Assembly (NCBI GenBank): GCA_963770835.1
Contig: CAVYRH010000003.1
Span: 32,001 to 96,000, forward strand
Reading direction: 5' to 3'
From: an uncultured Pseudomonadota bacterium
Lineage (GTDB): Bacteria; Oederibacteriota; Muellerivitia; Muellerivitales; Muellerivitaceae
Length of the DNA stretch: 64,000 nucleotides
The notes beneath the pieces are model-generated. The model searched no databases. It worked only from the letters and a program-made list of their open reading frames with translations, and was not told the DNA's origin. Below, one piece after another: positions 15,269-64,000 of this stretch. A program made the translations under genes and the position numbers. Every line of letters starts with the position of its first letter. Position 1 is the stretch's first letter.

Positions 15269-16279
15269 ATGGACTTGCTTATTGATACTTACGGTACCAA
15301 GATCGGCGTAAATGGCGAGCGCATCGTCCTTTCTTTTCCGAAAGTTAAAGAGAAAAAAGAATACCCCATCCATAGACTGGAGAAAATAGTCATACTGCGG
15401 CCGGCCTCGCTCACGACTCACGCGGTTCAGCTCGCGATTGAGCACGATGTTGATATCGTCTATCTCGGTTCTTTTGGCAAGCCCATCGGAAGACTATTTT
15501 CAAGCGAACCAAAAGGGCTGGCGAGTCTTCGTAAAGCGCAACTGGAAGCGTCAACTTCGCTTGAGCGATCGTTCAAAATCGCGAAAGAATTAGTGCGGGG
15601 CAAATGCGCTAATCAGCTCGATCTACTCCGATATCTCGCGTACCGATATAAAAAGGATGTGGGGACCGAACTCTTACAAGCGCAGACCCTTTTTGATGTC
15701 TTGGACAATGTCCCGTGTTCGGAGAAAGGCAAGGAGCAACTCCTTGGTACGGAAGGATACATCGCGGACAAATATTTCAGCGGGTTAAAAAAATTCTATA
15801 GATTCCCGGGCCGAAAACCACAAGGCAGGGACCAGTTTAACAGCGTACTGAATTATGGTTAGGGCATCCTTTACAATGAAGTCGAACGGGCATGCCTTTA
15901 CGTCGGTCTTGATCCATATCTCGGCCTCTACCACAGTGAACGCTATGGTAAGCCTGCCCTCGTTCTCGATCTTGTCGAAGAATTCCGCGTACCAATCGTC
16001 GACTCGGTGCTTTTCCCGCTTTTCATAGAAAAGAAACTGAGCCAACGGAAATATTTTGAAAAAACCGCGGTTGGGCAATATCTGTTATCGCCTGAGGGAA
16101 AAAGCGTCGTGGTGGGGGCGATCATGAGGCGGTTGAATGAAACGACGGCATGGCGGGGGAAACAATATACTCTTAAGCAGATCATAGATAACCAGATTAG
16201 GGCGTTGGCACGTCACTTTGTCGAAAAGGAGGACAAGTACAACCCGTTTCGTGCGGAAAAACTTTTTTCGATATCATGA
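15269..16279 (+). pseudogene. cas1: CRISPR-associated integrase Cas1 with premature TAG at 15860-15862
   Basis: LLGTEG..A..YF, D.FNS.LNYG[*]GILY.EV..A....GLDPYLG.YH, ALVLDLVEEFR.PIVD; frame continues after TAG to 16279; duplicate at 29065-29067 has TAC. Confidence 0.93.
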
Positions 16280-16611
16280 ACAATTTCAATGCCATCACCC
16301 TAGTATCGTGGGAAACGCGCGACTGGCGGCATCGGGACAAGGCGGTTCTGTGGTGCAAGAATTATGGTCTCAAGCCGGTTTTCCGGAATATGTATATCGG
16401 AAAATTGTATTCAAAAGAACGGGAAAAACTCGAGAATAAATTCAAGGGGGCTTTCGCAAAGAAGACCGAAAAGTTTTTTATCAGTACGCTCTGTCGGTCG
16501 TGCTTTGAAGATTCGGTTTTCGGTGGTACGCTTAGTTCTAAGAAAGATGATGTCGACATTGAAACTGCGTTTGAACTTATCCAAATCACGCCGAATTCGG
16601 CGGAACGGTGA
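16276..16611 (+). CDS. cas2: Divergent Cas2-like protein
   Basis: Overlaps cas1 stop (ATGA); LVSWETRD..R......KNYGLKPVFRNMYIGKL....LCRSC aligns with the Cas2 LV.YDI.D..R.....K.YG..VQ.SVF.G.L...lC..C pattern. Confidence 0.75.
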   Translation: MNNFNAITLVSWETRDWRHRDKAVLWCKNYGLKPVFRNMYIGKLYSKEREKLENKFKGAFAKKTEKFFISTLCRSCFEDSVFGGTLSSKKDDVDIETAFELIQITPNSAER

Positions 16612-16633
16612 AAAACACCAATAATTGCAGGCT
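16612..16633 (+). promoter_or_regulatory. Very short (22 bp) putative leader
   Basis: AAAACACCAATAATTGCAGGCT between cas2 stop and first repeat; TGCAGG is the reverse complement of the repeat start CCTGCA. Confidence 0.5.
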
Positions 16634-16670
16634 CCTGCACATGCCTGTCGCAAAAAGGATAGTGTGCAAC
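16634..16670 (+). repeat. 37-bp direct repeat 1
   Basis: Exact match to consensus. Confidence 0.97.
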
Positions 16671-16815
16671 TAAGAGACTACCGAGATCGAAGGACGACTC
16701 TTAAAATTTTTGCGGGCAACTTACTTATGTAACAGAATCAGTCCTTGCCAGGGCCTTTCGCAAGAAACGAGTCCCCCAAACCCTGATTTTGAGAAATTTT
16801 CTTAAAAGAACTTAA

Positions 16816-17643
16816 ATGAAAACCAGAGAGAATATACAATTACAACCATTTTTAAAATGGGCTGGCGGTAAACGTTGGCTGGTTTCTAAATACTCAAAAA
16901 TATTTTTAAAACCGTTTAATACTTATTTTGAACCATTCCTGGGTAGTGGGGCGGTGTTTTTCCACTTAAAACCAAAAAAATCAGTTCTTTCAGATGTTAA
17001 TAAAGACTTAATCGATACGTTTCGTGCGATAAGGAATAATTGGAAAGGTGTTGTAAGTGAATTGAAGAAGCATAATTCGAAACATTCCACAAATTACTAT
17101 TACAAAATGAGAGATTGGAAGCCCAATTCCGCCAATAAAAAAGCTGCACTTTTTATTTATTTAAATCGCACTTGTTGGAATGCTTTGTATAGGGTTAATA
17201 AAGAGGGGAAGTTTAATGTCCCTATTGGAACGAAATTAAATGTTTTACTTGAAACGGATGATTTTGAAGCAGTTTCTAATGCCCTAAAAAATGTAACATT
17301 CAAAGACGGAGATTTTGAACATATTTTAGATACGGCAAAAAAAGGGGATTTCATTTACCTTGATCCGCCTTATACGGTTACACATTCAAATAACGGATTT
17401 ATTAAGTACAATAATCATATTTTCAAATGGGAAGATCAATGCCGACTAGCAAGTGTTTCAAAAGATTTGATAAACCGCGGCTGTGCAGTTGTTATAAGCA
17501 ATGCTTATCACAACAGTATCTTTGATTTATATAAAGGGTTTTACTATTTGGGTTTGAAACGCCACAGCCTTTTAGCCGCCGATCCAAGGAAAAGAGGAGA
17601 TTATAAAGAGTGCCTTTTTTCGTCTTTCCCAATCAAAATTTGA
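16816..17643 (+). CDS. Dam-family DNA adenine methyltransferase
   Basis: KWAGGK, YFEPFLGSGAV, LNRTC.NALYRVN..G.FNVP, YLDPPY. Confidence 0.93.
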   Translation: MKTRENIQLQPFLKWAGGKRWLVSKYSKIFLKPFNTYFEPFLGSGAVFFHLKPKKSVLSDVNKDLIDTFRAIRNNWKGVVSELKKHNSKHSTNYYYKMRDWKPNSANKKAALFIYLNRTCWNALYRVNKEGKFNVPIGTKLNVLLETDDFEAVSNALKNVTFKDGDFEHILDTAKKGDFIYLDPPYTVTHSNNGFIKYNNHIFKWEDQCRLASVSKDLINRGCAVVISNAYHNSIFDLYKGFYYLGLKRHSLLAADPRKRGDYKECLFSSFPIKI

Positions 17644-17655
17644 CGGGAGTTTACA

Positions 17656-18630
17656 ATGGCCGATGAAAATGTTTTTGGTGGATTCCTTTTACAAGAAAAA
17701 CCCCCAATTTATTTAGCTGCAATACCAGGAAAATGGTTGTTAAAACACACAACTCCTTCTTGGCGATTAGAAAATCCAGAAGAAGGTTTTCAAAGAGTTG
17801 TCCAAGAAAAAAGGGCTAGAGAAATAGCGACTGCTGTTTTAAATCAAAAACGAATATTTCCAAACGCAATTGTTTTAGCTACGGATATTCAAAATTTCGA
17901 GGCACGAAAAGGCGAGATAAGCATTGGAAATAGGATTAAATTTCTTGTTGTTGATGGGCAACATAGGTTGTGGGCTCAAAAATTTTCAGAATTTGAGGCT
18001 ATATATGCTTGCACCATTCATTGTGGCCTTGATGAAGTAAAAATGGCGGAATTATTTATCGAGATTAACAACAACCAGAAACGGGTTCCGTCTTCTCTTC
18101 GCTGGGATCTTGTTAGATTGGTTAGGCCGGATGAGGATCCATTTGGAATTGAAGCATCTGAACTTGTTTTTGAATTGGCGACAAATGAATCGAGCCCCTT
18201 ATATCAAAGGATTGATTTAACGGGAGAACAAAACGAAATCAGTTTGAAACAAGGTTCTATTGCTCCTGAATTCAAACATATTTTTTCTTTAAGAGATTCC
18301 CCATTCAAAGATTTAAATTTTGAAGTGGTTGTTGACAGCATCATTAAGTATTTGGCTGCAATTAAATCAATGGATGCTGATGGTTGGAAAAAAGGGAAAT
18401 CTGCTTTTTACCAGGCTAGGGTATTAAGGGTTTTAATAAAAATATTACCTGAGATCATTAAAAAAGAAGGAGTCGATGTTTCGAAAATAACAGCAATTTC
18501 CTATAAAAACCACTTGGAAAAAATTAAAGAGAATAAAATCACAAGAGAAGCTTTGACGGCTCAACATGGGAATTCGGGCATTAAAGCTATTTATGATGAG
18601 ATACATTCTCAAATATTTGGTAGAAGTTAA
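17656..18630 (+). CDS. DGQHR-domain (DndB/ParB-like) protein
   Basis: GFQR, FPNAIVL, VVDGQHRL, LFIEINNNQKRVP.SL. Confidence 0.88.
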   Translation: MADENVFGGFLLQEKPPIYLAAIPGKWLLKHTTPSWRLENPEEGFQRVVQEKRAREIATAVLNQKRIFPNAIVLATDIQNFEARKGEISIGNRIKFLVVDGQHRLWAQKFSEFEAIYACTIHCGLDEVKMAELFIEINNNQKRVPSSLRWDLVRLVRPDEDPFGIEASELVFELATNESSPLYQRIDLTGEQNEISLKQGSIAPEFKHIFSLRDSPFKDLNFEVVVDSIIKYLAAIKSMDADGWKKGKSAFYQARVLRVLIKILPEIIKKEGVDVSKITAISYKNHLEKIKENKITREALTAQHGNSGIKAIYDEIHSQIFGRS

Positions 18631-19499
18631 TGAATTTATTTGATTTTTCTCAAGCGCAATATTTTTGTGGCAGTCATGTTTCGGCTTTGAGAAATCGGTC
18701 CGTTGGGCTGCGGAACTTCTTTGTGGCTCGGCCTAGAACCTTAAATTTATTAAGAGAGGGGACGCCTGAATATAATGAGTTTCGGGATGGTCTTTTGTGT
18801 GATATCGAAAGAAATTTATTTTTATCAATCTCACTTTATAGAAGATCTTTAGATTTAATGATGACCAGCTCGGCTAGTTGGGCTTTTGTTACCCTTTATT
18901 ACAGTTCGTTTCATGCAGCGTCAGCAATTATGGGGTTGTTCGGGGGAGTCTCAAAGGTTCCTGAATATATTGTCGATGTCGTTAGAGGAAACTCTGGGCG
19001 GCAAGAGCTGCGAATAATTAGAAATCTTGGTAATAATCAAAGGATATTAAGAAATTTTTCTGCATACAATGGTCCGCACAGAGTTTTTTGGGACATATTT
19101 TACCCATCAAGCGCTGGATTAACTGCATGGATTCCTGATCAAAGTTTACATATTGCATTGACCCCGGTTAGTAATGATCGGTTATGGCAAATTAACAATA
19201 GAAATGATTTGAATTATAACTCCCTTGATTCATTGGAGGTTTGCAAAAGTTTTGAGAATAACTTTAATTCCACAAATTTCCCCAGTTCCCTTCCTGGCGT
19301 TTTAAGTACCCAATTTTCAATAACTGAAGCAATGATTCTTACGGCTGTCTTTTTTTCTAAAGAATTTAATTTGGGAACCGACTCCTTGAAAAACCTTAAT
19401 CCTGCTGGCGCGAGAGAAACGAAATTGCGGAATTTAATCCGGGATGGTGTATTGCCTGATTTGGCACAGAAATCTAAAATCGCAGAAATGATATCTTGA
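18630..19499 (+). CDS. Hypothetical protein (possibly HEPN-like)
   Basis: 289-aa ORF coupled to DGQHR gene; W...YYSSFHAA and RN..NY motifs resemble HEPN folds. Confidence 0.55.
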   Translation: MNLFDFSQAQYFCGSHVSALRNRSVGLRNFFVARPRTLNLLREGTPEYNEFRDGLLCDIERNLFLSISLYRRSLDLMMTSSASWAFVTLYYSSFHAASAIMGLFGGVSKVPEYIVDVVRGNSGRQELRIIRNLGNNQRILRNFSAYNGPHRVFWDIFYPSSAGLTAWIPDQSLHIALTPVSNDRLWQINNRNDLNYNSLDSLEVCKSFENNFNSTNFPSSLPGVLSTQFSITEAMILTAVFFSKEFNLGTDSLKNLNPAGARETKLRNLIRDGVLPDLAQKSKIAEMIS

Positions 19500-19580
19500 A
19501 TTCTTAAAATTGGCTTCTAATTATTTAAGCCCATAATTATTTTAAATGATAAATGGTAATTTTTTCAAAAGGGGCAACCG

Positions 19581-20282
19581 ATGTGTGTCTCCTACCAACT
19601 AAACCTCCCCATTAAAGACATCGCCAAGACCTTTAAAGCGAAGCCCCCCAAGAAGATTCTCTGGGACCCCTCCAAATTAGAAAGAATCCGGCCTTCCCAC
19701 TTGGTCCCCATCATCATGGTCGACCCCGCAACAGGGGAGAGGGTCATCAAGGAAATGATTTGGGGAATGCCCTTTTTCGACTTCCTGAAAAAGAAGCTGG
19801 TCAGGCACCACCTTTTCAACGCAAAGGCCGAAACCATCACCGAAAAGAAAACCTTTAAGACCAACTTCCAAAAAAACCGCATCCTGGTCCCCATCAACCC
19901 GGCCTTCATCGAATGGAAAGACGTCGGCGGAAAGAAAAAACAACCCTACCTTATCGGCTTAAAACCCAAGGCCCCCTTCGCCTTTGCCGGCATTTGGGGG
20001 AAGTGGAACCTCACAGTTGAGGACGATAAGACGCTTGAAGCGAAGTTTAATGTGAACCCGAAATATGACCCTCCAAAGAAGGACTTTGAGTTTTACACCG
20101 TCATCACGACCACACCAAATGAGCTTATGGCCGACATTCACAACCGAATGCCTGTCATTCTGGACCCCAAGAACTACGACGCCTGGCTGGACCCTAATAT
20201 CCCGGACGCGGGGATCCTCAAAGGCCTATTAAAGCCCTACCCGGCCGCCAAGATGCAAGCCAAAGCCGCGGAGAAAGTTTAA
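19581..20282 (+). CDS. SOS response-associated peptidase (SRAP/HMCES)
   Basis: N-terminal MC, FNAKAET, F.EW, FAGIW, IHNRMPVIL. Confidence 0.93.
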   Translation: MCVSYQLNLPIKDIAKTFKAKPPKKILWDPSKLERIRPSHLVPIIMVDPATGERVIKEMIWGMPFFDFLKKKLVRHHLFNAKAETITEKKTFKTNFQKNRILVPINPAFIEWKDVGGKKKQPYLIGLKPKAPFAFAGIWGKWNLTVEDDKTLEAKFNVNPKYDPPKKDFEFYTVITTTPNELMADIHNRMPVILDPKNYDAWLDPNIPDAGILKGLLKPYPAAKMQAKAAEKV

Positions 20283-20755
20283 TGAAAAAACCGGAAACCT
20301 TACCCACAAGGCAAATAGGTAAACTCGGGGAACTTCTAGTCCAATACAAGTTACTCCAATATGGCATCGAATCCGCTCCTTTAACCACGGACGCAGGAAT
20401 AGACTTGGTGGCTTACGGCCCCAAAATCAAAAGGGCAATTACAATCCAGGTAAAAACAAACTTGAAGCCAAAGCCGGGGGGAGGAAAAGGAAAGCCCGCA
20501 ATAAATTGGTGGGTGGATGACGATAACCCGGCCCAAATTTACGCCTTTGTAGATATTTCCACCGAAAAAGTCTGGATATTTTCCAAAAAAGAATTCGAAA
20601 AGGTAGCCCAACAGCATTCGAGCGGCCGGCGGCAACTATATATGACCCTTTCTTCCGAATCAGAATTGAAAGGAAAAATTGGAAAGGCGGCTCAAATATT
20701 AAAATTTAACGACTACTTGTTAGTAAATCGAATAAGCACCTTAATAGGAAAATAA
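20282..20755 (+). CDS. PD-(D/E)XK family nuclease-like protein
   Basis: G.LGE..V, GIDLV, IQVKT. Confidence 0.7.
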   Translation: MKKPETLPTRQIGKLGELLVQYKLLQYGIESAPLTTDAGIDLVAYGPKIKRAITIQVKTNLKPKPGGGKGKPAINWWVDDDNPAQIYAFVDISTEKVWIFSKKEFEKVAQQHSSGRRQLYMTLSSESELKGKIGKAAQILKFNDYLLVNRISTLIGK

Positions 20756-20757
20756 AA

Positions 20758-21309
20758 ATGGACTCCTTCGAAAACGTCATCACAAGTCTCTTGGAGCGGG
20801 AAGGCTTCTGGACCCGTACATCCGTCAAGGTTGAATTAACAGATGTAGAAAAGAAGAAAATCGGATGGAAAACCAATCCCCGTCCGGAATTTGACATTGT
20901 GGCTTACAAAGGGAAAACGAATGAATTATGGCTCGTCGAATGCAAATCCTATCTCAACTCCGGGGGTGTAAATTATAGAGCCTTCAATGGAACGAACCCC
21001 GGTTTCGCCAAAAGATTTAAATTATTTAACAAACAAAAAAAATATAGGCTTGTAAGAAAGATTTTATTAGAAAAGTTGGTTGAGGCGGGTTTTTGCCGTC
21101 CAAACCCCAAGGTTAGCCTTGTATTAGTAGCGGGTAATGTCGTTGAAAGTCATCGTGAAAAATTAAAGTCGCATTTTGATAAAAAAGGCTGGATTTTGTG
21201 GGATGAAAAAGAATGGCACCCCAAGCTTAAGAAACTAGCCGGAGAAGGTTATGAAAACTCCATCGTTTCTGTAGTCAGTAAAATGCTTTTGCGAAGAACT
21301 GATAAATAG
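20758..21309 (+). CDS. PD-(D/E)XK family nuclease-like protein
   Basis: FE..., EFDIVA, LVECKS. Confidence 0.7.
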   Translation: MDSFENVITSLLEREGFWTRTSVKVELTDVEKKKIGWKTNPRPEFDIVAYKGKTNELWLVECKSYLNSGGVNYRAFNGTNPGFAKRFKLFNKQKKYRLVRKILLEKLVEAGFCRPNPKVSLVLVAGNVVESHREKLKSHFDKKGWILWDEKEWHPKLKKLAGEGYENSIVSVVSKMLLRRTDK

Positions 21310-21490
21310 ACAGGAGTTTTCTTTGCCCAAACCCTTCCTCAAATCCGACTTCCCTCCGCCTCGAATCAATTTTAACCAAACAAAATACATCCCTTTTCCT
21401 TCCTGCCCGGTTTTCACCCACCCCTGTTTAGTTTAACGACAAGGCGCTATTTCATTTACAACCTAACCCTCCGGGCGGACACTGATGTTG

Positions 21491-21584
21491 TTCGGTGTGG
21501 CAAGACCCAAAGGCCTACCACATTGGACCCCCGCGAAACGCGGATCTCCCCGGCATAGCGAGATCCCACCTCACCTAGGAGGTG
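21491..21584 (+). ncRNA. Candidate structured 5' leader RNA, copy 1
   Basis: Near-identical to 22353-22445; four hairpins, last one covers the GAGGTG RBS. Confidence 0.5.
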
Positions 21585-21590
21585 TCCGTC

Positions 21591-22325
21591 ATGTCTAAAA
21601 GTCCCATTTATAATTATGTTCCAGCCTGGTTCACCCAACGAACCGTTGAAATTTACAAACCCATGCCACCTTATGGCAGCCCCAAGGTGGTACGCACTCA
21701 GGTAGTTCCGGAAGACGCACCCGATTTCGCCTGTCATTACTGCCTGGAACCCTTACCCCTGATTCAATTTGAATCCGCCGACGAGTACCGCGTTTGCCCC
21801 ATTTGCCGGCACCGGGTATTGGATGCTTTTCTTCAAACCCCGGTTCACCTTTTAACCCGGGCCCAACAGGTGGAAATGTTCATAGGGGAACTTATTTTCA
21901 TCAAACAATGGAGATCGGTATTGGATTTGAGTTTGGAATTCTTCGAGCATGCTTCCTACGAAAACGAAAACGAGAAAGCCGATTTTAAGGAAGCCTGGGA
22001 CTTTATCGTTTCCCAAAAAGAAGTTGTTCTCGCCATGAATGGGCGGGTGGAAGTGGACTTCTGCATGGTTTTTTTGGATTACAAAAAACCGAAAAGCAAT
22101 TTAAAGGTTTATCTCTATAAACCTCGGGATTTCTGGTTTGACGCCCATGTGCAGAGCCGTTTGGGGTGCAGGCCCATTGAAGTGAACGGGTTTCAACTGC
22201 GCCTGGTAACCGCCACCAATTGGGCCGCCTACGGCTACCCCCGCTGTGAACAAATGGCCGTGATCGGGCTTTTGAAATGCCGCGGCCAATTGGCGTGGGA
22301 CGAAGTCTACGGCAAAAAAGCCTAA
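21591..22325 (+). CDS. Hypothetical Zn-ribbon protein (paralog of 23271-23990)
   Basis: CHYCL...CPICRH..L...L.TPV...TRAQQ shared with downstream paralog. Confidence 0.7.
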   Translation: MSKSPIYNYVPAWFTQRTVEIYKPMPPYGSPKVVRTQVVPEDAPDFACHYCLEPLPLIQFESADEYRVCPICRHRVLDAFLQTPVHLLTRAQQVEMFIGELIFIKQWRSVLDLSLEFFEHASYENENEKADFKEAWDFIVSQKEVVLAMNGRVEVDFCMVFLDYKKPKSNLKVYLYKPRDFWFDAHVQSRLGCRPIEVNGFQLRLVTATNWAAYGYPRCEQMAVIGLLKCRGQLAWDEVYGKKA

Positions 22326-22352
22326 GAAGCCGAACATAAAAAGTTGGTTTGA

Positions 22353-22445
22353 TTCGGTGGGGCAAGACCCAAAGGCCTACCCCATTGACCCCCGCGAAAC
22401 GCGGATCTCCCCGGAATAGCGAGATCCCACCTCCTGAAAGAGGTG
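22353..22445 (+). ncRNA. Candidate structured 5' leader RNA, copy 2
   Basis: Repeat of 21491-21584 with a compensatory stem change. Confidence 0.5.
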
Positions 22446-22449
22446 AAAC

Positions 22450-23274
22450 ATGGAAAAATTATTCGGCGTTGTATTCTATTTAATTGGTGTCGTTCAATTT
22501 ATCGCGGTGGATATGGGGGCGGCCGGAAGTATCTTAGAAAACGAGGGGTGGCATTGGATTTACTTACCCATTCGGTTGGCCTCTTTCGTAATGATGCTTT
22601 GCTTAAACTGGTACATTTTTATTTGGGCTCCAGGACAATTTTACCTGGTTCAAGAAACCGTAGTCCCGCCTAAAAATTCTCCGCCTCTTCATCCAACGCC
22701 TGTCGTTCCCGTCGACCCAAAGCGAGAACTATTCAAACAACCCACTCTTAAACCAGAGGCAGTTCATTACCCAATAAGGAAAACAGTTGTACTCAAACCC
22801 CGAGGGGATTCCGCTTCCTATGAAGTTCCCGCCGCCAAGACACCACTAACGCCTGATGAAAAGAAGTTTGCCGCGATGGTATCGCGGTTGAAAGAATTAG
22901 ATAAAGAAGGCGTAAGTATTGACGAGAAGGCTGAAGAAATACGGCGTTTGGGGGGCGAATTAAAGCGGGTAAATGACAAAAACGGGAATGAGATATGGCC
23001 ATTGAGCGAGACCCAATGGGAAAGGGAAATAGCGGAAAGACTTAAGGGTATCCATTGCCCCAATTGCCGAGGGATAGATATTGGCATGATCCTTTACGGC
23101 CAGTTGCCTAGAGGGGATGGTCGGTTAAACCATCTGATTCGCATGAAGTTATTTATACCGGGCGGCGGCCTCTCGGGCCTCGAGAATCTTTACTGTAATG
23201 ACTGCGAGAGCTATTGGGTAAGTGATAAATATTTAAGTGAGACCCCTCCTCCAGCGAGAGGCGGTGAAAAATGA
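22450..23274 (+). CDS. Hypothetical membrane protein with C-terminal Cys motifs
   Basis: Two N-terminal TM segments; CPNC...YG...C.DC. Confidence 0.65.
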   Translation: MEKLFGVVFYLIGVVQFIAVDMGAAGSILENEGWHWIYLPIRLASFVMMLCLNWYIFIWAPGQFYLVQETVVPPKNSPPLHPTPVVPVDPKRELFKQPTLKPEAVHYPIRKTVVLKPRGDSASYEVPAAKTPLTPDEKKFAAMVSRLKELDKEGVSIDEKAEEIRRLGGELKRVNDKNGNEIWPLSETQWEREIAERLKGIHCPNCRGIDIGMILYGQLPRGDGRLNHLIRMKLFIPGGGLSGLENLYCNDCESYWVSDKYLSETPPPARGGEK

Positions 23275-23990
23275 ATGACTTTCGTTCTTCTATTTTAGAT
23301 CCTCCCAGCAGTACGATTAACCACCCCCCAAAAACGGAACGGCCCTTGCGCCATAAGCGCCACCGGGACAAGCGGAAAAGATGCCCCTATTGCTTATGGG
23401 ATTTGACCGACTACGACCCGGAAGAAATTAAGGAACGGGGTAATCTATGCCCCCTTTGCCGCCACGGCATCCTGGAAAATCTTTTGTCCACCCCTGTCTA
23501 TGAATTTACCCGGGCCCAACAGTGGGATCTTTTGGCCAATGAAATGGAATATATCTGGGATGCGGAGCACCTTGACGTGGAAACCTACATCTTCGCAATG
23601 GGAAGTTATTACAACCCGGACTACGGCGAGGCCAAGGAAAGGTTGTGCGGCATGTTGGTGGAAAAGGAAGCGGTGTTGAGGCTGGAAGAGGAATTTATCG
23701 AGGCCGAGGGGGAATTGGACCTTCTTATCATCGCTTACTTGAATAAGTTGGCCGCGTGGAGGGGGGACATGGCCAGGCGGCTTTTCGTGGGGCGGCAATG
23801 GCGGCTTTCGGCCCGGCGGCTGAGCATGACCCATTTCAGTGAAAGGGAAGCGGTCGGGTTCCAACTGGGTTTCATACAGTCCTGTCCCTGGGGGGCCTTC
23901 GGGAGCCTGGACAAAAAGGAAAAGACCGTGGTCTATCTCGAGAAAATATTGGAGAAGCTTACTTGGGACCAGGGAAATATGGGGGCGTGA
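23271..23990 (+). CDS. Hypothetical Zn-ribbon protein
   Basis: CPYCL...CPLCRH; paralog of 21591-22325. Confidence 0.7.
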   Translation: MNDFRSSILDPPSSTINHPPKTERPLRHKRHRDKRKRCPYCLWDLTDYDPEEIKERGNLCPLCRHGILENLLSTPVYEFTRAQQWDLLANEMEYIWDAEHLDVETYIFAMGSYYNPDYGEAKERLCGMLVEKEAVLRLEEEFIEAEGELDLLIIAYLNKLAAWRGDMARRLFVGRQWRLSARRLSMTHFSEREAVGFQLGFIQSCPWGAFGSLDKKEKTVVYLEKILEKLTWDQGNMGA

Positions 23991-24044
23991 AATACAATCA
24001 GTAAAAAAGTGGGTCCAGCCCGAAATACCCCTGTAAAATATCCC

Positions 24045-24275
24045 ATGCCCAAACCCTACAATAAATCCGACTTTACACCCGCCGTCAAAGATCCCAAAAC
24101 CGGCCAGGTTTGGACCGGTGAAGACCATAAGGAAGCGATAAATAAAGCCCACAACGAGGGAAATAAGAGTGTTTATTTTGAAAACACCGGCTTTCTTCAT
24201 AAGGACGGCATCTTTTTCACCCGTTCCCAAACCGAAAGGCAATGGGGCTTCAAAACCAGCGCCGATCTGCGCTGA
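24045..24275 (+). CDS. Hypothetical protein
   Basis: 76-aa ORF in co-oriented run. Confidence 0.5.
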   Translation: MPKPYNKSDFTPAVKDPKTGQVWTGEDHKEAINKAHNEGNKSVYFENTGFLHKDGIFFTRSQTERQWGFKTSADLR

Positions 24276-24360
24276 AAACGTTTTTCCACCCCTCAAAATC
24301 CTCTTACCACTTTCCTCGTTTTTGTTCATAATACCGGCCATTCCAACTGGAGGTATTTGG

Positions 24361-51290: not shown

Positions 51291-51312
51291 CTATATTTGA
51301 TTGGAAGACTCA

Positions 51313-54056: not shown

Positions 54057-55241
54057 TTGCGAGTTAAATATAAGGGGTGTCTTTTGAAGAATATTTATAA
54101 ATCTTTAATGATTTCAATTTTTATTCCATTGTTCTCATCGGTTTTGGCTCAACCAGTTTCGACACCCCTCTCTACTACAGAATCAGCTCCGATCATTCAA
54201 CCGACACTTGGTGATTTAAAGAGGGACAAACCGGACTTTCCATCGTTTTATGCCAAAAAGGATATAACGAATAAAAACGATCATAATATTTATTTGATTA
54301 CCAAAAAAGAGACACTAACGCAGCAAATCCCAAGGGGGGAAATCAGCATTGATCCAAATGGATGGTTGTTTGAGGAAAGGTGTGGAGAGGGTATAAACAA
54401 AGATTGTTCATCATTCGATGGAAAATGGACTTATTCTGCGGAAAGTGGCCTCTCCGGTTCATTCGCTGTGCGAAATACTTCATCAAAAACAGAGACGGAT
54501 ATCGACAATCCCTCGGACCCCTTTGGTTTGTTTCCTTTAGTGTGGAACCCTTCTAAGGATGTTCTCTATTTTCTTAGTGTTTTAGGTGACTCCACCCAAC
54601 ATACTTTAGTTCTTTTTCAGTTTGACCCTGAAAGTAAAATTTTCATCAAATTCCCTGAGGCGATGGATTTTCTAAAAGTTTTCAATTTAAGCCCTGATGG
54701 GAAATGGATCGTTTGGACCGAAAAAAGTATTCATGTTTATAACGTAGAAAAAAACATCGATTATCCATTGACGGAAGTACCCGATTATTTCCAATTTTAT
54801 AATTGGTGTTATGCCGATAACGAGGATACGAAAACAAGGATCGCTAAATTCATCAACGATGGAAAGCAGTTTTACTTAAAACACCAGTTCGCTGATGCTA
54901 TTCAGGAATATCAAAAAGCGATCGATCTAGATTCTTCGAATTCGCTTGCATATGGGTATATGGGTTATTCTGCTTTTCGCATGGGAGACTTTAAAGATTC
55001 CATTCGAGATCTGGAAAAATCTATTGAATTAGACAAATGGAATAAAATGTCTTATTACAATTTGGCTTTGGTCTATTGGGACAATCATCAAAAGGAACGT
55101 TCGATCGCCTGTTTAGGCTCTATTCCTTACAAAAATGCAAAGCCAAGTTCGGAGTATTTGGATAAAAAACCAATCCAGGATGATCCTCAATTCAAAGAAA
55201 TGTTAGATAGCCCTGAATTTATAAAAGCTTTTGGTCGTTAG
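54057..55241 (+). CDS. Secreted TPR-containing protein (cassette)
   Basis: AI.EYQKAI.LD....AY..MG, YYNLA TPR units. Confidence 0.8.
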   Translation: MRVKYKGCLLKNIYKSLMISIFIPLFSSVLAQPVSTPLSTTESAPIIQPTLGDLKRDKPDFPSFYAKKDITNKNDHNIYLITKKETLTQQIPRGEISIDPNGWLFEERCGEGINKDCSSFDGKWTYSAESGLSGSFAVRNTSSKTETDIDNPSDPFGLFPLVWNPSKDVLYFLSVLGDSTQHTLVLFQFDPESKIFIKFPEAMDFLKVFNLSPDGKWIVWTEKSIHVYNVEKNIDYPLTEVPDYFQFYNWCYADNEDTKTRIAKFINDGKQFYLKHQFADAIQEYQKAIDLDSSNSLAYGYMGYSAFRMGDFKDSIRDLEKSIELDKWNKMSYYNLALVYWDNHQKERSIACLGSIPYKNAKPSSEYLDKKPIQDDPQFKEMLDSPEFIKAFGR

Positions 55242-55487
55242 AGTTTTGATTGATTCTTTGTCCGCGACGGGGACCCTTCGTGGACAGGTCAAAAGAGGGT
55301 AAAGTGACAGAACTCAAACCAAGTTGGCCGGAATATTCCGGTGGAAAGAAACTCGAACAAGACACCCTTCTGTCCTCCCCCACAGGCACCACTTTTATCG
55401 CCCCTCAAGGATGGCATGCCGCTTTCCAAAAGGATTCTTGGGTCCTGGAAGACCCGGAGCGGGAATTGATCATCGCCTTGGTGGAGA

Positions 55488-56753
55488 TGACCGGCCCCCC
55501 AAGTTTGTGCCACCAATTAAGTCACTCCCGGAGTAGGAGTTCCTGAGGTCGTCATGGGCAAGGTGTTGCCTTTGGGCCCCATGACGACCGCCTCCGGGGC
55601 AGGCGGTTTATACCCCAGAGAGCTGTGCGGCCGTTTCGTATTGTACTCCTTCCTCCACCTCTCAGCGAGCACTCGGCCTTCCCACACCGTGTCGAGCAGT
55701 TCGCCGTTCAATAGTTCGTCCCTGAATTTGCCGTTGAAGCTTTCGTTATAGCCGTTCTCCCAAGGGCTTCCCGGTTCGATGAAAAGGGTCTTTACTCCCA
55801 CCTTCGGGAGCCAGTCCTTCACCCTCTCCGCTGTGAATTCAGGCCCATTGTCGGAGCGGATGTGCTCCGGCACTCCCCGTTGGACGAACAAGTCCGTCAG
55901 CACTGCCTGCACGTCGTCCGCCGTAAACTTCCGAGCTACCGGCAGGGCCAGGCATTCACGGGTGAACTCATCGATCAGCGTCAGGAACCGAAGAGGCCGT
56001 CCGTCGCTGGTCCTCTCGGCGACGAAGTCATAGCTCCAAACGTGGTTGGGGTGTTCCGCCCTCAACCTGACACAGGAACCATCCGTAAACCACAACCTCC
56101 TTCGTTTCGGCTGTTTTTTCGGTACTTTCAACCCTTCCTGCTTCCAAATCCTTTCCACCCGCTTCTTGTTGACCCTCCAGCCCTCCTCCTGAAGCATCTT
56201 GGTAATCCGCTTATACCCATACCGCCCGTACTGGCAGGCCAGCCGGAGAATGGCGGTCGTCAGGAGGTCCTCATCGGGCAGGATCTGAGGGATATATCGC
56301 TGGGTGCTCCGGGGTTGGCCGAGGGCCCGGCATACGCGCCGCTGGGAGGCTCGGTGGGTTTCACACGCTTCCCGAACCGCTTTTCGGCGCTTTTCCGGGC
56401 TTAGGAGTTTCCCCGGGCCAAGTCTTTCAGGATGCGGTTATCCAGGGAGAGGTCGGCCACCACCCGCTTGAGCTGGGTATTCTCTTTCTCCAATTCCTTT
56501 AGGCGTTTGGCCTGGTCCAGCTTGAGACCGCCGTATTCTTTTCGCCAGCGGTAGTAGGTATGTGGGGTTATTTGAAGCTCACGGCAGACTTCTTCAACAG
56601 CACGGCCTTTGGACTGCTCAACCTCGGCCTGGCGCAACATGGAAATGATCTGCTCGGCGTTGTGTTTCTTCCTTGGCATAAATGCCCCCTTTTCTTGGCC
56701 CATTATAGAAAAGTATGACTTTTCAACTGGACCAGGTTGAGGGGGGCGGGTCA
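55488..56753 (-). mobile_element. IS3-family element, complete (orfA 56401-56679, orfB ends 55517)
   Basis: IRs TGACCGGCCCCCC / GGGGGGCGGGTCA; DDE motifs WSYDF, RSDNGPEF, PWENGYNESFNG, YN..RPHSSLGY. Confidence 0.93.
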
Positions 56754-57144
56754 GAGGAACCAAGCCTTTTACAACCACGCAACCGACAGCATTACCCTTC
56801 CTTTTAAAGAGGCTTTTAAATCCACCGAAGGATTTTACGAAACGGTTTGCCATGAGCTCATTCACTGGACGGGAGGCCCGGCCCGGCTCAACCGCATTTC
56901 CAAAGCGGCCTTTGGTTCCGAAGAATACGCCGCCGAGGAGCTTGTGGCCGAGTTTGGGGCTTCGATCCTTTGCGCTCATGTCGGAATCCCTTACAAAACC
57001 AACCACGCCGCTTATATCGCCTCATGGATTAAGAAGTTAAAAGACGATCCGAAGGCCCTTTCCACCGCCATCACCCAAGCCCAAAAGGCCGTTGATTTTC
57101 TTTTGAAACCCGCCGCAGACGAAATAATTAAGGAGGTAGCTTAA
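56754..57144 (+). pseudogene. ardC: ArdC-like antirestriction protein, zincin-like C-terminal fragment
   Basis: AFY....D.I.LP....F, HELIHWTG...RLNR, YAAEELVAE.GA, HAAYIASW...LK.D. Confidence 0.82.
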
Positions 57145-57146
57145 CC

Positions 57147-57584
57147 ATGAACAAAAGACACTTAAAAAAACTATTAAAGGTGGCCGACGGGGTTTACCCC
57201 GACGGCCTTATTGAAAGACTACTCAAAGGAGAGGAGGAGGTAGGGGACGGCCTGGCCAAATTCATTTTTAACGAAATGACCGAAACCGCCGAAGGGAAGA
57301 CACCCTGGGAAATTACCGAAAGCGTAATCAAAGCCTTGGAAACGGGCGCTAAGGAACTGGACTGCGTAATCCGGGCTTTGCGCCAGGTCAATACCAAAGG
57401 CCCCAAGAGGGTTGGGCCCAGGAAAAGGCTTAAGGAATTTACCGTTACTTGGGTTCGCAAGGGAATGAAAACCTACAAAGCCACCAGTGAGGAGGCCGCC
57501 GAACAGCAATTTTCCGACGATCCAAACGCGCCAGATGAAGAACAGACAACCGATGTTTACACGCAGGAAGGGGGGATTTTATGA
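57147..57584 (+). CDS. Hypothetical protein (mobile-element type)
   Basis: AAGGAGG RBS; coupled to neighbours. Confidence 0.65.
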   Translation: MNKRHLKKLLKVADGVYPDGLIERLLKGEEEVGDGLAKFIFNEMTETAEGKTPWEITESVIKALETGAKELDCVIRALRQVNTKGPKRVGPRKRLKEFTVTWVRKGMKTYKATSEEAAEQQFSDDPNAPDEEQTTDVYTQEGGIL

Positions 57585-57817
57585 AAAAGCCGAAAATTGT
57601 TATTCACTTAGACGGGGGTTTAGTCCAAAGCGTTGTATCCGACCAAGGGGGAATTGATTTTAAGGTTATCGACCATGACATCGAGGGGAGCCAGGAAGGC
57701 GAGAGCCAGGTTGTTGACGGCCAGGAGGTAATCATTACTCAACACGATCGGGCAGAGAAAAACACCCGCCACGTTAAGGAGGTTTTTTCGGCCAAAAGTA
57801 ATTTCTTGGATAGATAG
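57581..57817 (+). CDS. Hypothetical protein
   Basis: IVI.L.GGLVQ.V.SD...V.D.D motif. Confidence 0.65.
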   Translation: MKKPKIVIHLDGGLVQSVVSDQGGIDFKVIDHDIEGSQEGESQVVDGQEVIITQHDRAEKNTRHVKEVFSAKSNFLDR

Positions 57818-57837
57818 CCAACCCCTCCAAGAGCAAC

Positions 57838-57864
57838 GCCCCCGGTTAACGCTGGGGGCTTTTT
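57838..57864 (+). terminator. Intrinsic terminator
   Basis: GCCCCCGG-TTAACG-CTGGGGGC followed by TTTTT. Confidence 0.7.
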
Positions 57865-57970
57865 GCTTTCGCAGGGTAGGGAAATGCCCCTCCCCTGGAC
57901 CCCACCCTAGCCCGGGCGGTAGATCCCCCCGGTCGCAAACAGCTTCTTTGCTGTTTGCACAACTTAAGCG

Positions 57971-58007
57971 CCTGCACATGCCTGTCGCAAAAAGGATAGT
58001 GTGCAAC
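57971..58007 (+). repeat. 37-bp direct repeat 10
   Basis: Exact match. Confidence 0.97.
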
Positions 58008-61000
58008 CCCTTTATGAGACCTGGCGCGAGGACAACACGGTGGAGTACGACTTCGACGTTCCCCCGGGCCTCTACCAGGTTAACTGCCACTGGGCCGAAA
58101 CCACCTACGATACCCCGGGTGAAAGGGAGTTCAACGTCCTGGCGGACGGCCAAACCCTGGTTTCCCCCGTGGACCTGCTCACCCTGACGCCCGAGGGTAA
58201 CGCCTACAACACGAGTTTCTACGACATAAATGTCCAACTGCCCCAACCTCAATTCCTGGGTTTGGATGGCAACGAAAACCCAATCTACAGCGCGGTGCCT
58301 CCCTATGGGATTCTTGCCCTGAAGTTCGTGAAGACCAAGGGCTCCTTGGGCGGGGCGATGATTTCGGCCCTTGAGGTCATCGGGGAACAGCCCGTGCCCA
58401 CCATCACCCCGACGGGCACTTACACCCCGCCCCCGACCATCACCTTCACCCCAACGCCCAGCCCCACGTCCACGCCCAGCCCCACCCCGGCGGCCGCCGG
58501 GCCTTCTCCGACCTACACCTTCACGCCCAGCCCAACGGGCACCCTGGTGCCTCTTACGAACACCCCAACAGCCACTCCAACTGTATCTCCCACAGCTTCA
58601 TTCACCCCCGTTACCGGAGCCTATACGGCCCGCTTGGAGATGGTTGGGCCCAACGTTGTTTCCCGGGCAACACCTGGACCACGGACCAGGAGTACAGCTA
58701 CGGCGGGGCAGGATGGCTCATCGAGGGCCAGCCCGTTTATACGACCGACCCCATTTCCGGCATAGGCCAGGCCAGCGTTTCGCTTTTCCAGTATTACCGT
58801 GAGGGCCCGGCTCCCCCGTCCGGCTTTGGCCCAGCGCTGGAATACCGCTTCGACGTTCCGAACGGCCAATACCAGGTCACCCTCAACTTCGCCGAGGCAG
58901 AAAACCTCCAAGCCGGGGCGCGAGTATTCAGTGTTTTGGCCCAAGGGCTGACGGTCATTTCCAACCTGGATATTTACAAAACGGTTGGCTTTGAGACGGC
59001 CTTGAGCCAAACCTTCCTTACCACCGTCAACAATGGAACCCTCGACCTCCAGTGGATCGCTTCGGTGGGCAACGCCACCATTTCTTCCATCCAGGTCTTA
59101 GGCCAGCAAGTACTTCAGACCCCGACATCGACCCGCACGCCCGTTTCCGGGGCCCTCGATATCCCGGTGAACGTGGGGGGAACCTCCTTCACCGATTCAA
59201 CCAACAAAACCTGGTTCGCTGACCAAGCTTATACCTCCGGTGGTTATGGTTACGTGAACCCCCAATCGGCCTTCTTCACCAGCGACACGGTGGATGGGGC
59301 GGCTCTCAAGGACCAGCCGCTTTACCAGGATTGGCGGGAAGGCACCAGCCTGGAATACGAATTCACCGTTCCCAACGGCAGCTACCAAGTGAACCTCTAC
59401 TGGAACCAGATCGCGGACACGCCCGGCGAGTATAACTTCAACGTCCTTACCCAGGGCCAGACGGTCGGCTCCAACCTTGACCTTTCCTTCGAGGGCCCTT
59501 ATTTCAGCGCCGTGACCCAGTCCTTCTACGACGCAGCCGTGACCAACGGCATTTTCGACGTCCAACTGGATTCTCCCACGGATTTCGCGGCCTTAGCCGG
59601 CATTGAGGTCATCGGGGAACAGTCCAACCCCACGGCGACCTTCACGCCCACGGCAACTCCCAGTTTGACCCCAACCGGTACACCCACAATAAGTCCCACT
59701 CCCACTGGCACTTGGTACACCTCCACGCCCACCGGAACCCCGACACCCACCGCTGTTCCACCAGCCTTGTTCGCCTCCGTGGATTACGTCCAGGAACTTC
59801 CCCCCAATTCCACCGCGACGGTCACTGCTGATGGCGCCCGGGTGACCACCCGGATCAACATCATCGGAACCGCCAACGGCAACTTCTCCCCCGCGCCGCA
59901 AGGATCGGCATCCAAAGCGGTTGGTTCCTGCTCTACCAGCCCGTCAGCGGGACGGGTACGGCGGTGACCATCGCCACGGGCACCAACCAGGTCAACGAAG
60001 GTGTCTTGGGAACCCTCGACCCGACCCTTCTCTTGAATGGAACCTATAACTTATTGCTTTTGGCCATGCAGCCGGATGGGACCAACACCAACTGGGTTGT
60101 GGCCAACATCAGCATCGACGGCAACCAGAAGGTGGGGAATTTCACCCTTTCCTTCACCGACCTTAACGTGCCCGTTTCAGGCCTCCCGATGCAAGTGGTA
60201 CGAACCTATGACAGCCGAAACCAGAACCAGGGGGATTTTGGCATCGGATGGACCCTGGATATCCACAACGTCCAGGTGGAGGAATCGGGGGTGATGGGCG
60301 ACGGATGGCAATCGGTCATTCAAGCCGGAACCGGATTAGATGGCGCGTTCAGACAAATCTTCATATCCTCCACCCAATCCCATTTCGTGGACATTGTATT
60401 GGGCAACGGAAAGGTTTACTCCTTCGAGCCGCATTTCCTGGATGTCTCAGACAACGACGTGGCGCCCGGAGGGAAGGGGGAACAGGATATATCGGGCGGT
60501 ACTTACGGGGTGTTATTCAAACCCCTGTTCGGAACCGCGCCCAACTGCACCCTGGTACCCATAGGCGGAAATGGCAAGCCTGTGACGGACGTCTCTGCCA
60601 ACAGCTCGCCCGACGTCGTTCCCGATGTGCTTAATTGGTCGGATGCTTCGGACTCGGTGAACGACATTAACGGAAGTTACGATCCACAAAGGTTCCTCTT
60701 CACCGATGAAGCCGGCAACCAGTACATCGTGAACACCTCCACGGGCCTGGAACAGATGACGGCCCTCAATGGGGATATGTTAAAAGTGGACAACGCCGGC
60801 ATCCACTGGGTCAGCGCTTCCCAAGCCGGCCATAAGGACATCCTCTTTACCCGGGATAACTTCGGCCGCATCCAGCAGATCCAGGACCCCGCGGGGAACC
60901 TGTACCACTACAGCTATACCGACGGCAAGGGCAACCTGACGGCCTTCCAGGATCCGGCGGGCGCGGCCAAGAGGGCAAATGGACACTTATACATACAACA

Positions 61001-64000
61001 ATACCCACGGGCTCTTGGCCATCAAGGACCCCCTGCTCCAGACGCCCATCCGAAACGACTACGACGCCAATGGCAGGCTCGTCGACACCTACGACGCGAA
61101 CAACAACAAGATCACCTACAATTACAACCTGGCCGCCAACAGTGAATCGGTGACCGACCGGGCGGACGCGCCCACCAGCTATGTCTACGACGACGAGGGG
61201 AACGTTACCCAGGAAACCGACCCCCTGGGCAATGTGACCCATTACACCTATTCGTCCGACGGGTTCAACAACAAGACCAGCGAGCTTTTGCCGGGCAACT
61301 CGAGGGCCAACACTTATATCTACGGCGACCCCAACAACCCCCGCAGCATCACCGAGCAGGTCGACCCCGATGGCGACAAGACCTTTTACACCTACGACGG
61401 CCAGGGCCATGTACTGACGACGACCGACCCCAACGGCAACGTGGCCACCAATACCTACGACATCCACGGAAATCTTACGTCAAGCAAGGCCGCCCAGGAT
61501 CAGCCGCCTTCCGGCTACCAGTACGACCCCAATAGCAACTTGCTCCAGCAAACCGACCCGGCGGGGATCGTGACAGCCTACGGTTACGATTCCTCGGGCA
61601 ACCAGAATGCGGTGACGGTGGCCTATGGCCGCGCCAAACAGCAGGTCACCACTTACACTTACGATTCCAACGGCAACCGTTTAAGCCAGACGCTAAACAA
61701 CCCATCCGGGTAAGGCAACCAAACAACCCTCTACCAGTACGACGGCAACAACCGGCTGGTCACCACCATCTACCCTGACGGCACCAACACCAGCACCACC
61801 TACGATGCACTGGGCCACACGGTTTCCACGACGGACCAGAAGACAAGGGTGACTTTACATTATTACGATCCCATGGGCCGTGCCACGACCATCCAATACC
61901 CCGACAACCGCAAGAGCGTATACGACTACGACGTCAACGGGAACCGCCAGGACGACACCGAATACGGCACGGATGGAATATCCCGGAATACCCATACGGA
62001 TTACGACCAGGACAACCGGCCCTACGAGGTGGACTATACCATCGGCTCGACCCAGTCAAAATACAACCCTGGCCAAGGGGCGGTAACCCAGTTCGAGGAC
62101 GAAAACAACAACTTCACCTACAAGTATTACGACCAGGCCGGCCGCGCGACGTCCATCCTCGCCGGGGCTGGGGGCATCAACCAGGAAACCCAATACGGCT
62201 ACGACCCGAACGGCAACCAGACGGCAGTTACCGTGGCGAATCAAGTGCAGTCCAACACGGGTTACGACAGCCTCAATCGGGCCGCCACCGTCACCTACCC
62301 CTCCCCAGGGACAAATGTTGCCACCCATCATCACGACCTATGACCCGGATGGGCGGAAACTGAACCAGAACGACCTGGCTGGCAAGGTGACCAACTACGG
62401 CTACGACGGCCTGGGGCGCTTGACGGGCGTAACCCTGGTTTCATCCTCCGGCAACCAGGGCGAAAGCTACACCTACGACCAGGCGGGCGACGAGTTGAGC
62501 CAGACTGACGCCAACGGCCACACCACCCGCTACACCTACGACAACATGAACCGGCGCAAGAGCCGCACCCTTCCGGGCGGCCAAAAACGAGACCTACAAC
62601 AGCTACGACGCCACGGGCAACTTGACGTCCAAGACGACCTTCAACGGCCAGGTAATCGCCTACGCCTATACCCAGCTGGACGATAAACTTCAAACGGAGT
62701 CCCTGCCCGAGTACAACATCACCTTCAATTACGACGACTTCCTTCGCCGCCAGAGCATGACGGACGTGAGCGGGACAACCACCTACAATTACGATTCAAG
62801 GGACAGGATGACGGCCAAACAAGGCCCCGAGGGCACTCTTTCCTACACCTACTACAACCACGGGGAATTGGAGAGCGTTAAATCCTCTCTACCAACGGCA
62901 CTAACGTCAGTTACACATACGACTCCCTGAACCGGCTGACGACGGTGAATGACACCCATTGGACCGGGAATACAAGTTACACCTACGACCCCTTCGGCAA
63001 CCTGGCTTCCGTCAACAAGCCCAACGGCGAATCGGTGACTTACACCTATGACGTTTTGAACCGCCTGAACAGCATGGCGGCCACGGTCAACGGTTCGTCC
63101 ATTCGTTCCTACACCTACACTTTGGGCCCGAATGGCAACAGGACAAATGTGGCCCCGCAGCTCTCCAACCGGGCCGTGACCTACACCTACGACGACTTAT
63201 ATCGTCTCACGGGGGAAATTGTATCGAGTGACCCGGCGACCCAGAATATCGGGGCCATCAGCTACCAGTATGACGCCGTAGGGAACCGCACCAACCGGAC
63301 ATCGGGGATCACGGCCATTTCAAGCCAATCCCCGTCTTATGACGCCGGTGGGGACGACCGCATGACCTCGGACGGAACTTCCAGTTATTCCTATGACGCC
63401 AACGGCTCCACCACCCAAATAGGGCCAAACACTTACGCTTTTGACAGTTTAGGCCGGATGACCCAGGCCACGGTGGGGGACCACAACGACCACTTATGTT
63501 TACGATGGCGACGGGAACAAGATCCAGCAGGTGGTGAACAACGGGACGGGACCAGTGACCACAAGTTACCTAGTGGATTCCACCAACCCCACCGGCTACG
63601 CCCAGGTGCTTGAGGAAAACCAGGGTAGCGGTGTGAATTTGGTTTACACCTATGGTTCCAGCCGGATAAGTGAAGACCAGTACAACGGGACAAGTTGGAA
63701 TTTGAGCTTCTATGGCTATGACGGTCAAGGATCAGTGAGGTATTTGACCGACTCCCGCTTGGAACTAAAACGGATACTTACGATTACGATGCGTTTGGGA
63801 CACTTATTAACCAGACCCAGCCGTGGGTGCGCCCACCCCGAATGAGTTTTTCTTCGATGCCGAGCAATTAGATGGGAATTCAGGTTTCTACAACCTAAGA
63901 GCGCGTTGGATGAATGTTGGAATTGGAAGGTTCCAAACGATGGACAGTTTTGAAGGGCGTCAACAACCCCATTGAGTTTGCATAAATATGAATTTTCAGC
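58008..64000 (+). pseudogene. Large RHS/YD-repeat protein with malectin-like domains and Thr/Pro linkers; 5' truncated at repeat 10, multiple frameshifts
   Basis: Three LY...R......Y.F.VPNG.Y.V.L.FAE malectin-like units, RTYDSR...GDFG.GW, many YD repeats, RHS core (D.QGSVR, YNLRARW...GRF...D) at window end. Confidence 0.85.

Follow-up and report, generated by a model that had tools for sequence, protein, structure and literature searches.

A stand-alone Cas1-Cas2 module that probably stores DNA fragments of variable length between CRISPR-type repeats

A 64,000-nt stretch of DNA from an uncultured bacterium (contig CAVYRH010000003.1; here called the window, G000:C3:32001-96000, where G000 is the source genome, 96% complete) carries a cas1-cas2 pair followed by an array of identical CRISPR-like repeats, which are separated by gene-bearing segments of kilobases. 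The system is probably an effector-less and Cas4-less Cas1-Cas2 integrase related to type V-F, which stores DNA fragments without measuring their length. At the sequence level, this is supported by the anatomy of the locus, the Cas2 fold, a link between Cas1 and repeat throughout a clade, contiguous excised fragments, a bias at the segment ends, and the lack of an effector among the families tested. Cas1-Cas2 would catalyze the insertion of the segments, presumably by the two-nick chemistry of canonical systems. An earlier note on this DNA had proposed a stand-alone Cas1-Cas2 that captures kilobase fragments and duplicates the repeat without a CRISPR RNA role, and the tests reported here favor that proposal. 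The product appears to be different in kind from that of any known Cas1 system, and no description of such a system was found in the literature searched, in which subscription papers were thinly covered.

The repeat array and the origin of its segments

Ten direct 37-mers, 100% identical, are located downstream of cas2 (positions are those of the window, + strand, unless a contig is given). The cas2 gene stops at 16611, and a leader of 22 bp (16612..16633) separates it from the leader-proximal repeat 1 (16634..16670). Repeats 2 to 10 follow at 28721..28757, 29839..29875, 32336..32372, 34891..34927, 37151..37187, 38986..39022, 43250..43286, 45789..45825 and 57971..58007. The segments S1 to S9 between them are 12050, 1081, 2460, 2518, 2223, 1798, 4227, 2502 and 12145 bp long, and S10 (11984 bp) is closed by an 11th repeat beyond the window at G000:C3:101992. 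The repeat number, the 22-bp distance and the spacings described earlier were all reproduced, as was the AAC at the 3' end of the repeat (GCAAC); the CRISPR-like dyad symmetry was confirmed, although it is weak (z of -2.0 on one strand and -2.1 on the other). The 37-mer has no match among the Rfam CRISPR families. The last leader bases form a palindrome with the repeat start, and the leader end (mostly GCT) is conserved throughout the clade described below. No sigma-70 promoter was found near cas1 or the leader, and no shared trailer was seen past the last repeat. The earlier note had raised the case of a 37-mer scattered over the genome independently of cas1. The repeat is indeed not confined to the window, with 27 copies in G000 (<=5 mismatches) in four clusters; a cas1-cas2-leader unit heads the window array and two other clusters, and one cluster is leaderless.

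The segment set comprises 97 repeats and 57 closed segments from five genomes of the family (G000, G004, G014, G027 and G030), with segment lengths of 67-26,097 bp and a median of 1,856 bp. The 194 repeat-flanking ends include 15 leaders, 152 ends without a match in the DNA compared, and 27 with a copy elsewhere. At all 27 the copy continues without the repeat; these are the uninterrupted source loci for which a search had been proposed. Four segments map end to end on contiguous DNA at 99.96-100% identity (559, 885, 1,081 and 7,247 bp), and the 885-bp one lies reversed inside a longer segment of another genome. S3, S7 and the segment at C3:393393 are overlapping cuts of one source. Junctions through genes, as described earlier, were confirmed for cas1 (S2 start), the RHS core gene (S3 start), the autotransporter barrel (S4 start), IS3 (S8 start), and the NHL, beta-propeller and GmrSD/DUF262 genes. 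Where the source is known, the left and right flanks are never contiguous across the repeat, unlike the contiguous flanks of a small 37-bp insertion. The segments are contiguous fragments cut from other DNA.

It might be argued that ordinary short-spacer arrays were later inflated by insertion sequence (IS) elements, introns or cassettes, since the segments hold IS200, IS110, IS3 and DDE transposase genes, intron remnants and cassette sites, and one genome (G023) retains spacers of 30 and 38 bp. However, no gap below 60 bp was found among the 57 of the five genomes or among the 38 gaps outside the candidate division FCPU426 (140-4,242 bp). The end-to-end mapped segments show no short-spacer remnant at their ends, and IS3 is severed at two junctions, not inserted whole. 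Such inflation is very improbable and already largely refuted.

Both segment ends, read inwards, are A/T-rich at positions 3-7. G is found in only 9 of 174 ends at position 3 (p=2e-8), and T in 84 of 174 at position 5 (p=4e-9). The left and right end profiles agree (r=0.55, p=0.006), which suggests that one activity treats both ends alike; the family profile also agrees with that of the Patescibacteria set (r=0.66, p=0.0005). Canonical Cas1 needs fraying of the DNA end about 5 nt in, and the A/T bias may reflect easy fraying at about this distance or the preference of an upstream nuclease. No common protospacer-adjacent motif (PAM) was seen by eye in the source flanks of the 27 ends, and microhomology with the repeat reaches at most 2 bases where checked by eye. 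The 57 segments share no terminal inverted repeats (at most 8/15 matches), in agreement with the earlier note; its remark that no integrase was seen within the segments needs refinement, as they carry IS transposases and group II intron remnants internally.

Only 7,343 of the 52,988 bases of S1-S10 have a copy of at least 95% identity elsewhere in G000, and S1 and S4-S6 have only patchy relatives in 30 family genomes. The mean GC content of the segments is 46.8%, against 54.5% for the genome. Stretches of 0.6-7 kb that are 99-100% identical across genera were also observed (G000:C17, G004:C2, G027:C3 and C8), which suggests that DNA was exchanged within the family very recently. An artefact of assembly or library preparation, with a linker producing chimeric joins, was also considered, and in S10 of the window contig there are indeed RHS genes with broken frames and a homopolymer run of 1 kb. 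No contig of the sequencing runs spans a complete repeat-segment-repeat unit. Yet dozens of separate assemblies show the same anatomy with different cognate repeats. In a contig of run X3, the repeat is followed by the same DNA as at G000:C16:21525, and contigs of runs X2 and X3 join the leader to the repeat. An artefact is therefore extremely improbable.

The Cas1 and Cas2 proteins and their clade

The cas1 gene (15239..16279, + strand; probable start 15269) codes for 346 amino acids matching PF01867 and TIGR00287; the protein is above the TIGR00287 cut-off and above no subtype cut-off. Three cas1-cas2-leader units in G000 are 99.7-99.9% alike, and a partial copy lies in S2. An internal TAG (15860-15862) is present only in the window cas1; the copies at C15, C16 and in S2 have a tyrosine codon there. 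The TAC-repaired Cas1 recommended for expression in the earlier note is unnecessary, because intact natural cas1-cas2 pairs exist at G000:C15 and C16. Residues E172, H232, D244 and E247 are invariant in 34 clade sequences, and we take them to be the metal site by analogy with E. coli Cas1.

The variant cas2 gene (16276..16611, + strand) encodes 111 amino acids, with W-E-T-R-D where the Y-D-I-S motif is expected; the Y-D-I-S of the outgroup Cas2 is replaced by W-x-T-R-N in the variant family. Its product has no match in Pfam or NCBIfam. Standard CRISPR finders miss the system, as had been predicted, and so does the Pfam Cas2 model its Cas2. The profile of the variant family matches the Pfam-positive outgroup Cas2 with a probability of 97.8%; the structural model has a pLDDT (predicted local distance difference test) of 81, and its top 12 Foldseek rows are Cas2 or Cas2-type entries. 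The prediction of a Cas1(2)-Cas2(2) complex scored 0.30 against a mark of 0.32 and was used neither for nor against the assignment. In G000, no Cas3 over the cut-off and no RAMP, Cas9, Cas12f-like or Cas4 match was found (Cas6, Cas8, Cas10 and other Cas12 were not searched), and no ordinary CRISPR array was found.

The close Cas1 homologues are mostly from Patescibacteria, and FCPU426 records contain Cas1 that is 96-100% identical. In a tree of 49 Cas1 proteins (L074 was left out for a frameshift), a 30-row clade was recovered with support 97/96. The FCPU426 Cas1 was nested beside a Nomurabacteria sequence (99/96), which suggests that cas1 was transferred to FCPU426 from Patescibacteria. The sister group consists of one Woesearchaeota locus (cas1-cas2-cas4-cas12f2) and Methanospirillum-type loci, which have similar repeats and spacers of 36-41 bp. 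A search of other genomes and metagenomes, as proposed earlier, revealed the cognate 37-mer 337-383 nt past cas1 in 29 of 37 genome loci (12 of the 29 had seeded the repeat matrix) and a cognate repeat in 17 of 23 metagenome loci with enough DNA. Ordinary arrays were present at none of the 37 clade loci, against 27 of the 39 outgroup loci of at least 8 kb; the rows counted include some duplicates or kin, and those from metagenomes were placed by identity rather than by tree. Homologous loci with ordinary short spacers only, another possibility raised in the note, were not seen. The Patescibacteria arrays have up to 9 repeats and a neat start at the leader. The clade Cas1 was not found in viral contigs; phage and plasmid Cas1 matches are below 35% identity among the matches listed and below 60% overall.

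These data also bear on whether the 37-mer is a small mobile insertion or the site of an unrelated recombinase, with cas1-cas2 as a bystander. Repeats do occur away from cas1 in G000, as well as in three genomes without a detected clade cas1, and 4 of 28 clade loci have an integrase, resolvase or transposase upstream. The repeat, however, is found at a fixed distance behind cas2, changes together with Cas1 across phyla, and resembles the canonical repeats of the sister group. Moreover, its flanks are not contiguous in any known case, and the 79 upstream open reading frames (ORFs) of the 28 loci include no common recombinase; no Cas family was found among them either. A bystander role for Cas1-Cas2 is highly unlikely.

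Proposed mechanism, irregular arrays and neighboring features

In the proposed mechanism, Cas1-Cas2 would hold two free DNA ends with little sequence preference, A/T-rich just inside and without a PAM. At the leader junction, the two ends would be joined to the 37-bp repeat next to the leader, one at each border; fill-in repair would then duplicate the repeat as in canonical adaptation, but without a fixed end-to-end distance. Identical repeats would thereby come to enclose one contiguous fragment, from about 30 bp to at least 7 kb in length; segments reach 26 kb. As substrates, the integrase would mostly take accessory and mobile DNA that circulates among relatives, and at times DNA of the cell itself, the cas locus included. 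What results would be a store of DNA and no template for guide RNA. The lost length ruler may be due to the loss of Cas4 and the altered Cas2. From the lone repeats and the two head-to-head pairs, it seems that each end occasionally acts on its own, which would rearrange the chromosome.

Several observations weigh against such an integrase. Known sources are lacking for 152 of the 194 ends and for most window segments, and part of the length of the largest segments could stem from IS elements or cassettes inserted after the capture. The internal stop in the window cas1 means that supply in trans from C15 or C16 has to be assumed. The effector negative covers Cas3, RAMP, Cas9 and Cas12f only, with Cas6, Cas10, type I-specific Cas7/Cas8 and other Cas12 unsearched. 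In the survey of 31 family genomes, the clade cas1 was found in 5, all with the repeat, and 23 of the 26 others have no repeat, which favors the integrase; against it, the remaining three (89-90% complete) have the repeat and no clade cas1 was found in them. The compared genomes are kin, and the counts are not independent. G023 has 30- and 38-bp spacers among seven; this genome also contains a canonical 34-repeat array with a different repeat and Cas1 (L169, G023:C23:60001-80000) alongside its long-spacer arrays, so that short inserts might be possible or might be made by its other CRISPR system. Finally, some repeats stand alone, some arrays have no leader, and in two pairs the repeats are head to head (109 and 144 bp apart; G000:C3:400723/400869 and G030:C170), a picture that clean full-site insertion would not produce by itself, and no spacer junction is common to two arrays in the five family genomes. 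In favor of the integrase, units that are 97-100% identical carry different first spacers. The order of addition is unreadable, and the "ordered archive" of the earlier note is not supported, as the arrays share no junction and are split and rearranged. The nine-repeat cluster at G000:C3:383301-400905 (L002, L003) is leaderless and includes two repeat variants typical of other genera and one inverted repeat; one of its segments has about 22 bp of cas1 at its start and then a cut IS3.

These irregular arrays are what would be expected if the enzyme mainly made half-site joins of broken chromosome or foreign ends, so that arrays were rearrangement scars and the two ends of a segment came from separate events. 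In addition, no repeat closes the DNA past the last repeat of the window array, which starts inside a region that has a counterpart of 86% at C9, and a tandem duplication that stops at the nick site would account for S2 equally well. In contrast, four segments have both ends in one contiguous source at exact length, one of them reversed; most repeats are in direct arrays; and the arrays of Patescibacteria, with up to nine repeats, begin neatly at the leader. Uncoupled end-joining is an unlikely account of the arrays as a whole.

If the integrase reading is accepted, the module might further be a selected, CRISPR-derived gene-capture system that works independently of sequence across Patescibacteria, DPANN archaea and FCPU426 and fixes multi-gene DNA without homology or att sites. 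Its cargo would be defense systems, surface proteins and polymorphic toxin loci, sometimes as fusion genes through the repeat. Genes would then be acquired by a third route, next to homologous recombination and integrons. This extension is tentative, and a selfish or near-neutral element may be considered instead. Whole operons were captured, including the HEC-01 pair and type III restriction-modification genes, and PADLOC matches, some of them generic, were found for 19 of 143 and 4 of 30 segment ORFs; these counts are without a control, and no enrichment is claimed. Most small segments cut genes, and the "gene-capture platform" of the earlier note is not borne out as a selected function. Universal co-orientation of the cargo was considered and rejected: the forward counts are 10/10 in the window, 38/50 in the five family genomes, and 11/29 in Patescibacteria and others, a bias confined to FCPU426.

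The contents of the window segments are as follows. S1 (16671..28720) codes for an adenine methylase, a DGQHR protein, SRAP, a Y-family polymerase and unknowns, and looks like a mobile-element fragment. Its relatives are patchy (65-92%, in 14 of 30 family genomes), and it has no copy of at least 95% elsewhere in G000. At its start (16816-19499), the adenine methylase, the DGQHR-domain protein and a 289-amino-acid unknown form one operon, possibly an undescribed defense or modification module. S2 (28758..29838) contains the 3' part of cas1, cas2 and the leader, and stops exactly at the leader-repeat junction; a second full leader therefore stands directly before repeat 3. It is a 100% match to C15:16872-15792 and differs once from the window cas1, corresponding to the intact allele; we regard it as a self-capture of the cas locus. 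S3 (29876..32335) starts within the RHS core gene, carries an IS200 transposase, and ends by cutting a 243-amino-acid gene at residue 133, which is uncut in the array segment at C3:393393ff. S4 (32373..34890) holds an autotransporter barrel end, two outer-membrane barrel genes and a cut ORF. A TPR-like gene and an NHL-repeat gene severed at the repeat are found in S5 (34928..37150), and two unknown ORFs and a severed beta-propeller gene in S6 (37188..38985). Pieces of run X1 end exactly at both S6 borders; they were not counted, as X1 may be the source sample. S7 (39023..43249) has a DDE transposase (DUF772 type), and its final 1,622 bp overlap S3 with another breakpoint; in a contig of run X2, the first base of S7 is preceded by other DNA that is not a repeat.

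S8 (43287..45788) begins in the middle of a resident IS3-family element, followed by a HerA fragment, a PD-(D/E)XK nuclease and the cut GmrSD gene. Repeat 9 is read through in frame: the ORF at 45381-46817 fuses the GmrSD N-terminal domain across it to a FecR-domain protein, a fusion evidently made by two unrelated captures. S9 (45826..57970) is a piece of a palindromic-site cassette array with six sites, IS110, an intron remnant and IS3. The first 5,993 bp of S10 lie in the window (58008..64000) and contain malectin and RHS genes in several frames. A poly-T/poly-A run of about 1.05 kb follows at G000:C3:97310-98340 (L001:1310-2370), and the RHS genes are frame-broken; the run is probably an assembly artefact, and the assembly quality of S10 is doubtful.

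The cas unit itself appears to move within a second system. Its 5' boundary is a palindromic cassette site (15165..15196, + strand) with arms of about 11 bp and an asymmetric 8-bp core, and the unit sits in a host cassette array distinct from the CRISPR array (5684..15164, + strand; sites at 5684, 6282, 7414, 11452 and 13298). Five near-identical units (C3, C15, C16, G004 and G014, from three genera) start inside such a site, sharing the right arm and differing left of the core, so the unit behaves as a cassette of the second system. G000 holds 85 of these 30-bp sites by matrix search and a shuffled contig none; they occur in co-oriented runs with half-site swaps between loci, and within the window they form arrays at 5684-15196 and 48554-55288. 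Group II introns and IS110 are located at these sites. An internally deleted group II intron of about 820 bp (6295-7110 and 52594-53410; at least 8 genome copies, 99-100%) always lies directly behind one. Among the 12 tyrosine recombinase matches listed for G000, none is on C3, C15 or C16. The cas units of G027 and G030 have no palindromic-site boundary. Leaderless arrays and differing trailers could result if excision reached to a site within a captured segment; a site lies within about 0.5 kb upstream in three leaderless clusters, and none at many others. Eight pieces of cas2 end, leader and repeat (59-243 bp) without cas1, each with its own 5' break, were also found (G014:C3:497434; G027:C27/C12/C3; G030:C183/C50/C20/C113). 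Several adjoin TGACCCC-like motifs, which resemble Y1-transposase element ends, and the pieces are possible satellite arrays.

Implications and comparison with known systems

Cas1-Cas2 is regarded as rigidly bound to a fixed spacer length (10.1101/602623), and the bridging Cas2 dimer is proposed to have turned a transposase into a short-spacer integrase (PMC6977970). If the present reading is true, a natural Cas1-Cas2 storing 0.03 to >7 kb would be the reverse of that evolutionary step, and the Cas2-ruler model would be testable by a Cas2 swap. Small-genome bacteria would have a homology-free means of gene gain. A two-gene tool might also be derived that places arbitrary linear kilobase DNA, without special ends, in a landing site of about 60 bp, for cargo insertion or DNA recording.

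By their defining features, the window system is not CRISPR immunity, type V-F, a casposon or an integron. It shares with type V-F (Cas12f/Cas14) and the neighboring archaeal adaptation modules the conserved Cas1 catalytic-site residues, the Cas2 fold, the 37-nt repeat and the leader-adjacent array. It differs in that no Cas4 or effector was found, the Cas2 motif is changed, the leader has 22 bp, and the spacers are irregular and up to kilobases long, without a PAM. The outgroup locus L064 contains cas12f and cas4, which were not found in G000 or among the 79 upstream ORFs. As in CRISPR-Cas immunity, cas1 and cas2 stand beside direct repeats of CRISPR type (37 nt, weak dyad); what is missing are regular spacers of about 30-45 bp (2 of 7 in G023 being the exception), effector genes of the families tested and a PAM. 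As for leader polarity, near-identical units differ in their first spacers, and older spacers in common were not found. In stand-alone cas1-cas2 modules and orphan arrays, the locus has no effector, the spacers are ordinary, and an effector is served in trans; G000, in contrast, has neither the tested effector families nor an ordinary array.

Casposons are closer in cargo size. The casposase, of the Cas1 family, uses a leader-like site for the insertion of long DNA, and the target is duplicated; what it moves is its own element, by way of terminal inverted repeats, and the duplication measures 14-15 bp (PMC5137440; PMC6977970). A Cas1-family enzyme, long inserts and target duplication are common to both. 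In the window, however, unrelated passenger DNA that has no terminal repeats is inserted, 37 bp are duplicated, there is a Cas2, and the genes of the enzyme lie outside the inserts. No PolB was found among the window ORFs or the scanned upstream ORFs, and cas2 follows cas1, so the locus is not a cas1-solo. Integrons consist of IntI and whole-gene cassettes bounded by attC on a fixed chromosomal platform. No IntI-type head is on the array contigs C3, C15 or C16 among the tyrosine recombinase matches listed. The window array resembles an integron as a fixed platform stacking foreign genes in tandem; however, its breakpoints are arbitrary and often cut genes or IS elements, and its linker is a duplicated CRISPR repeat.

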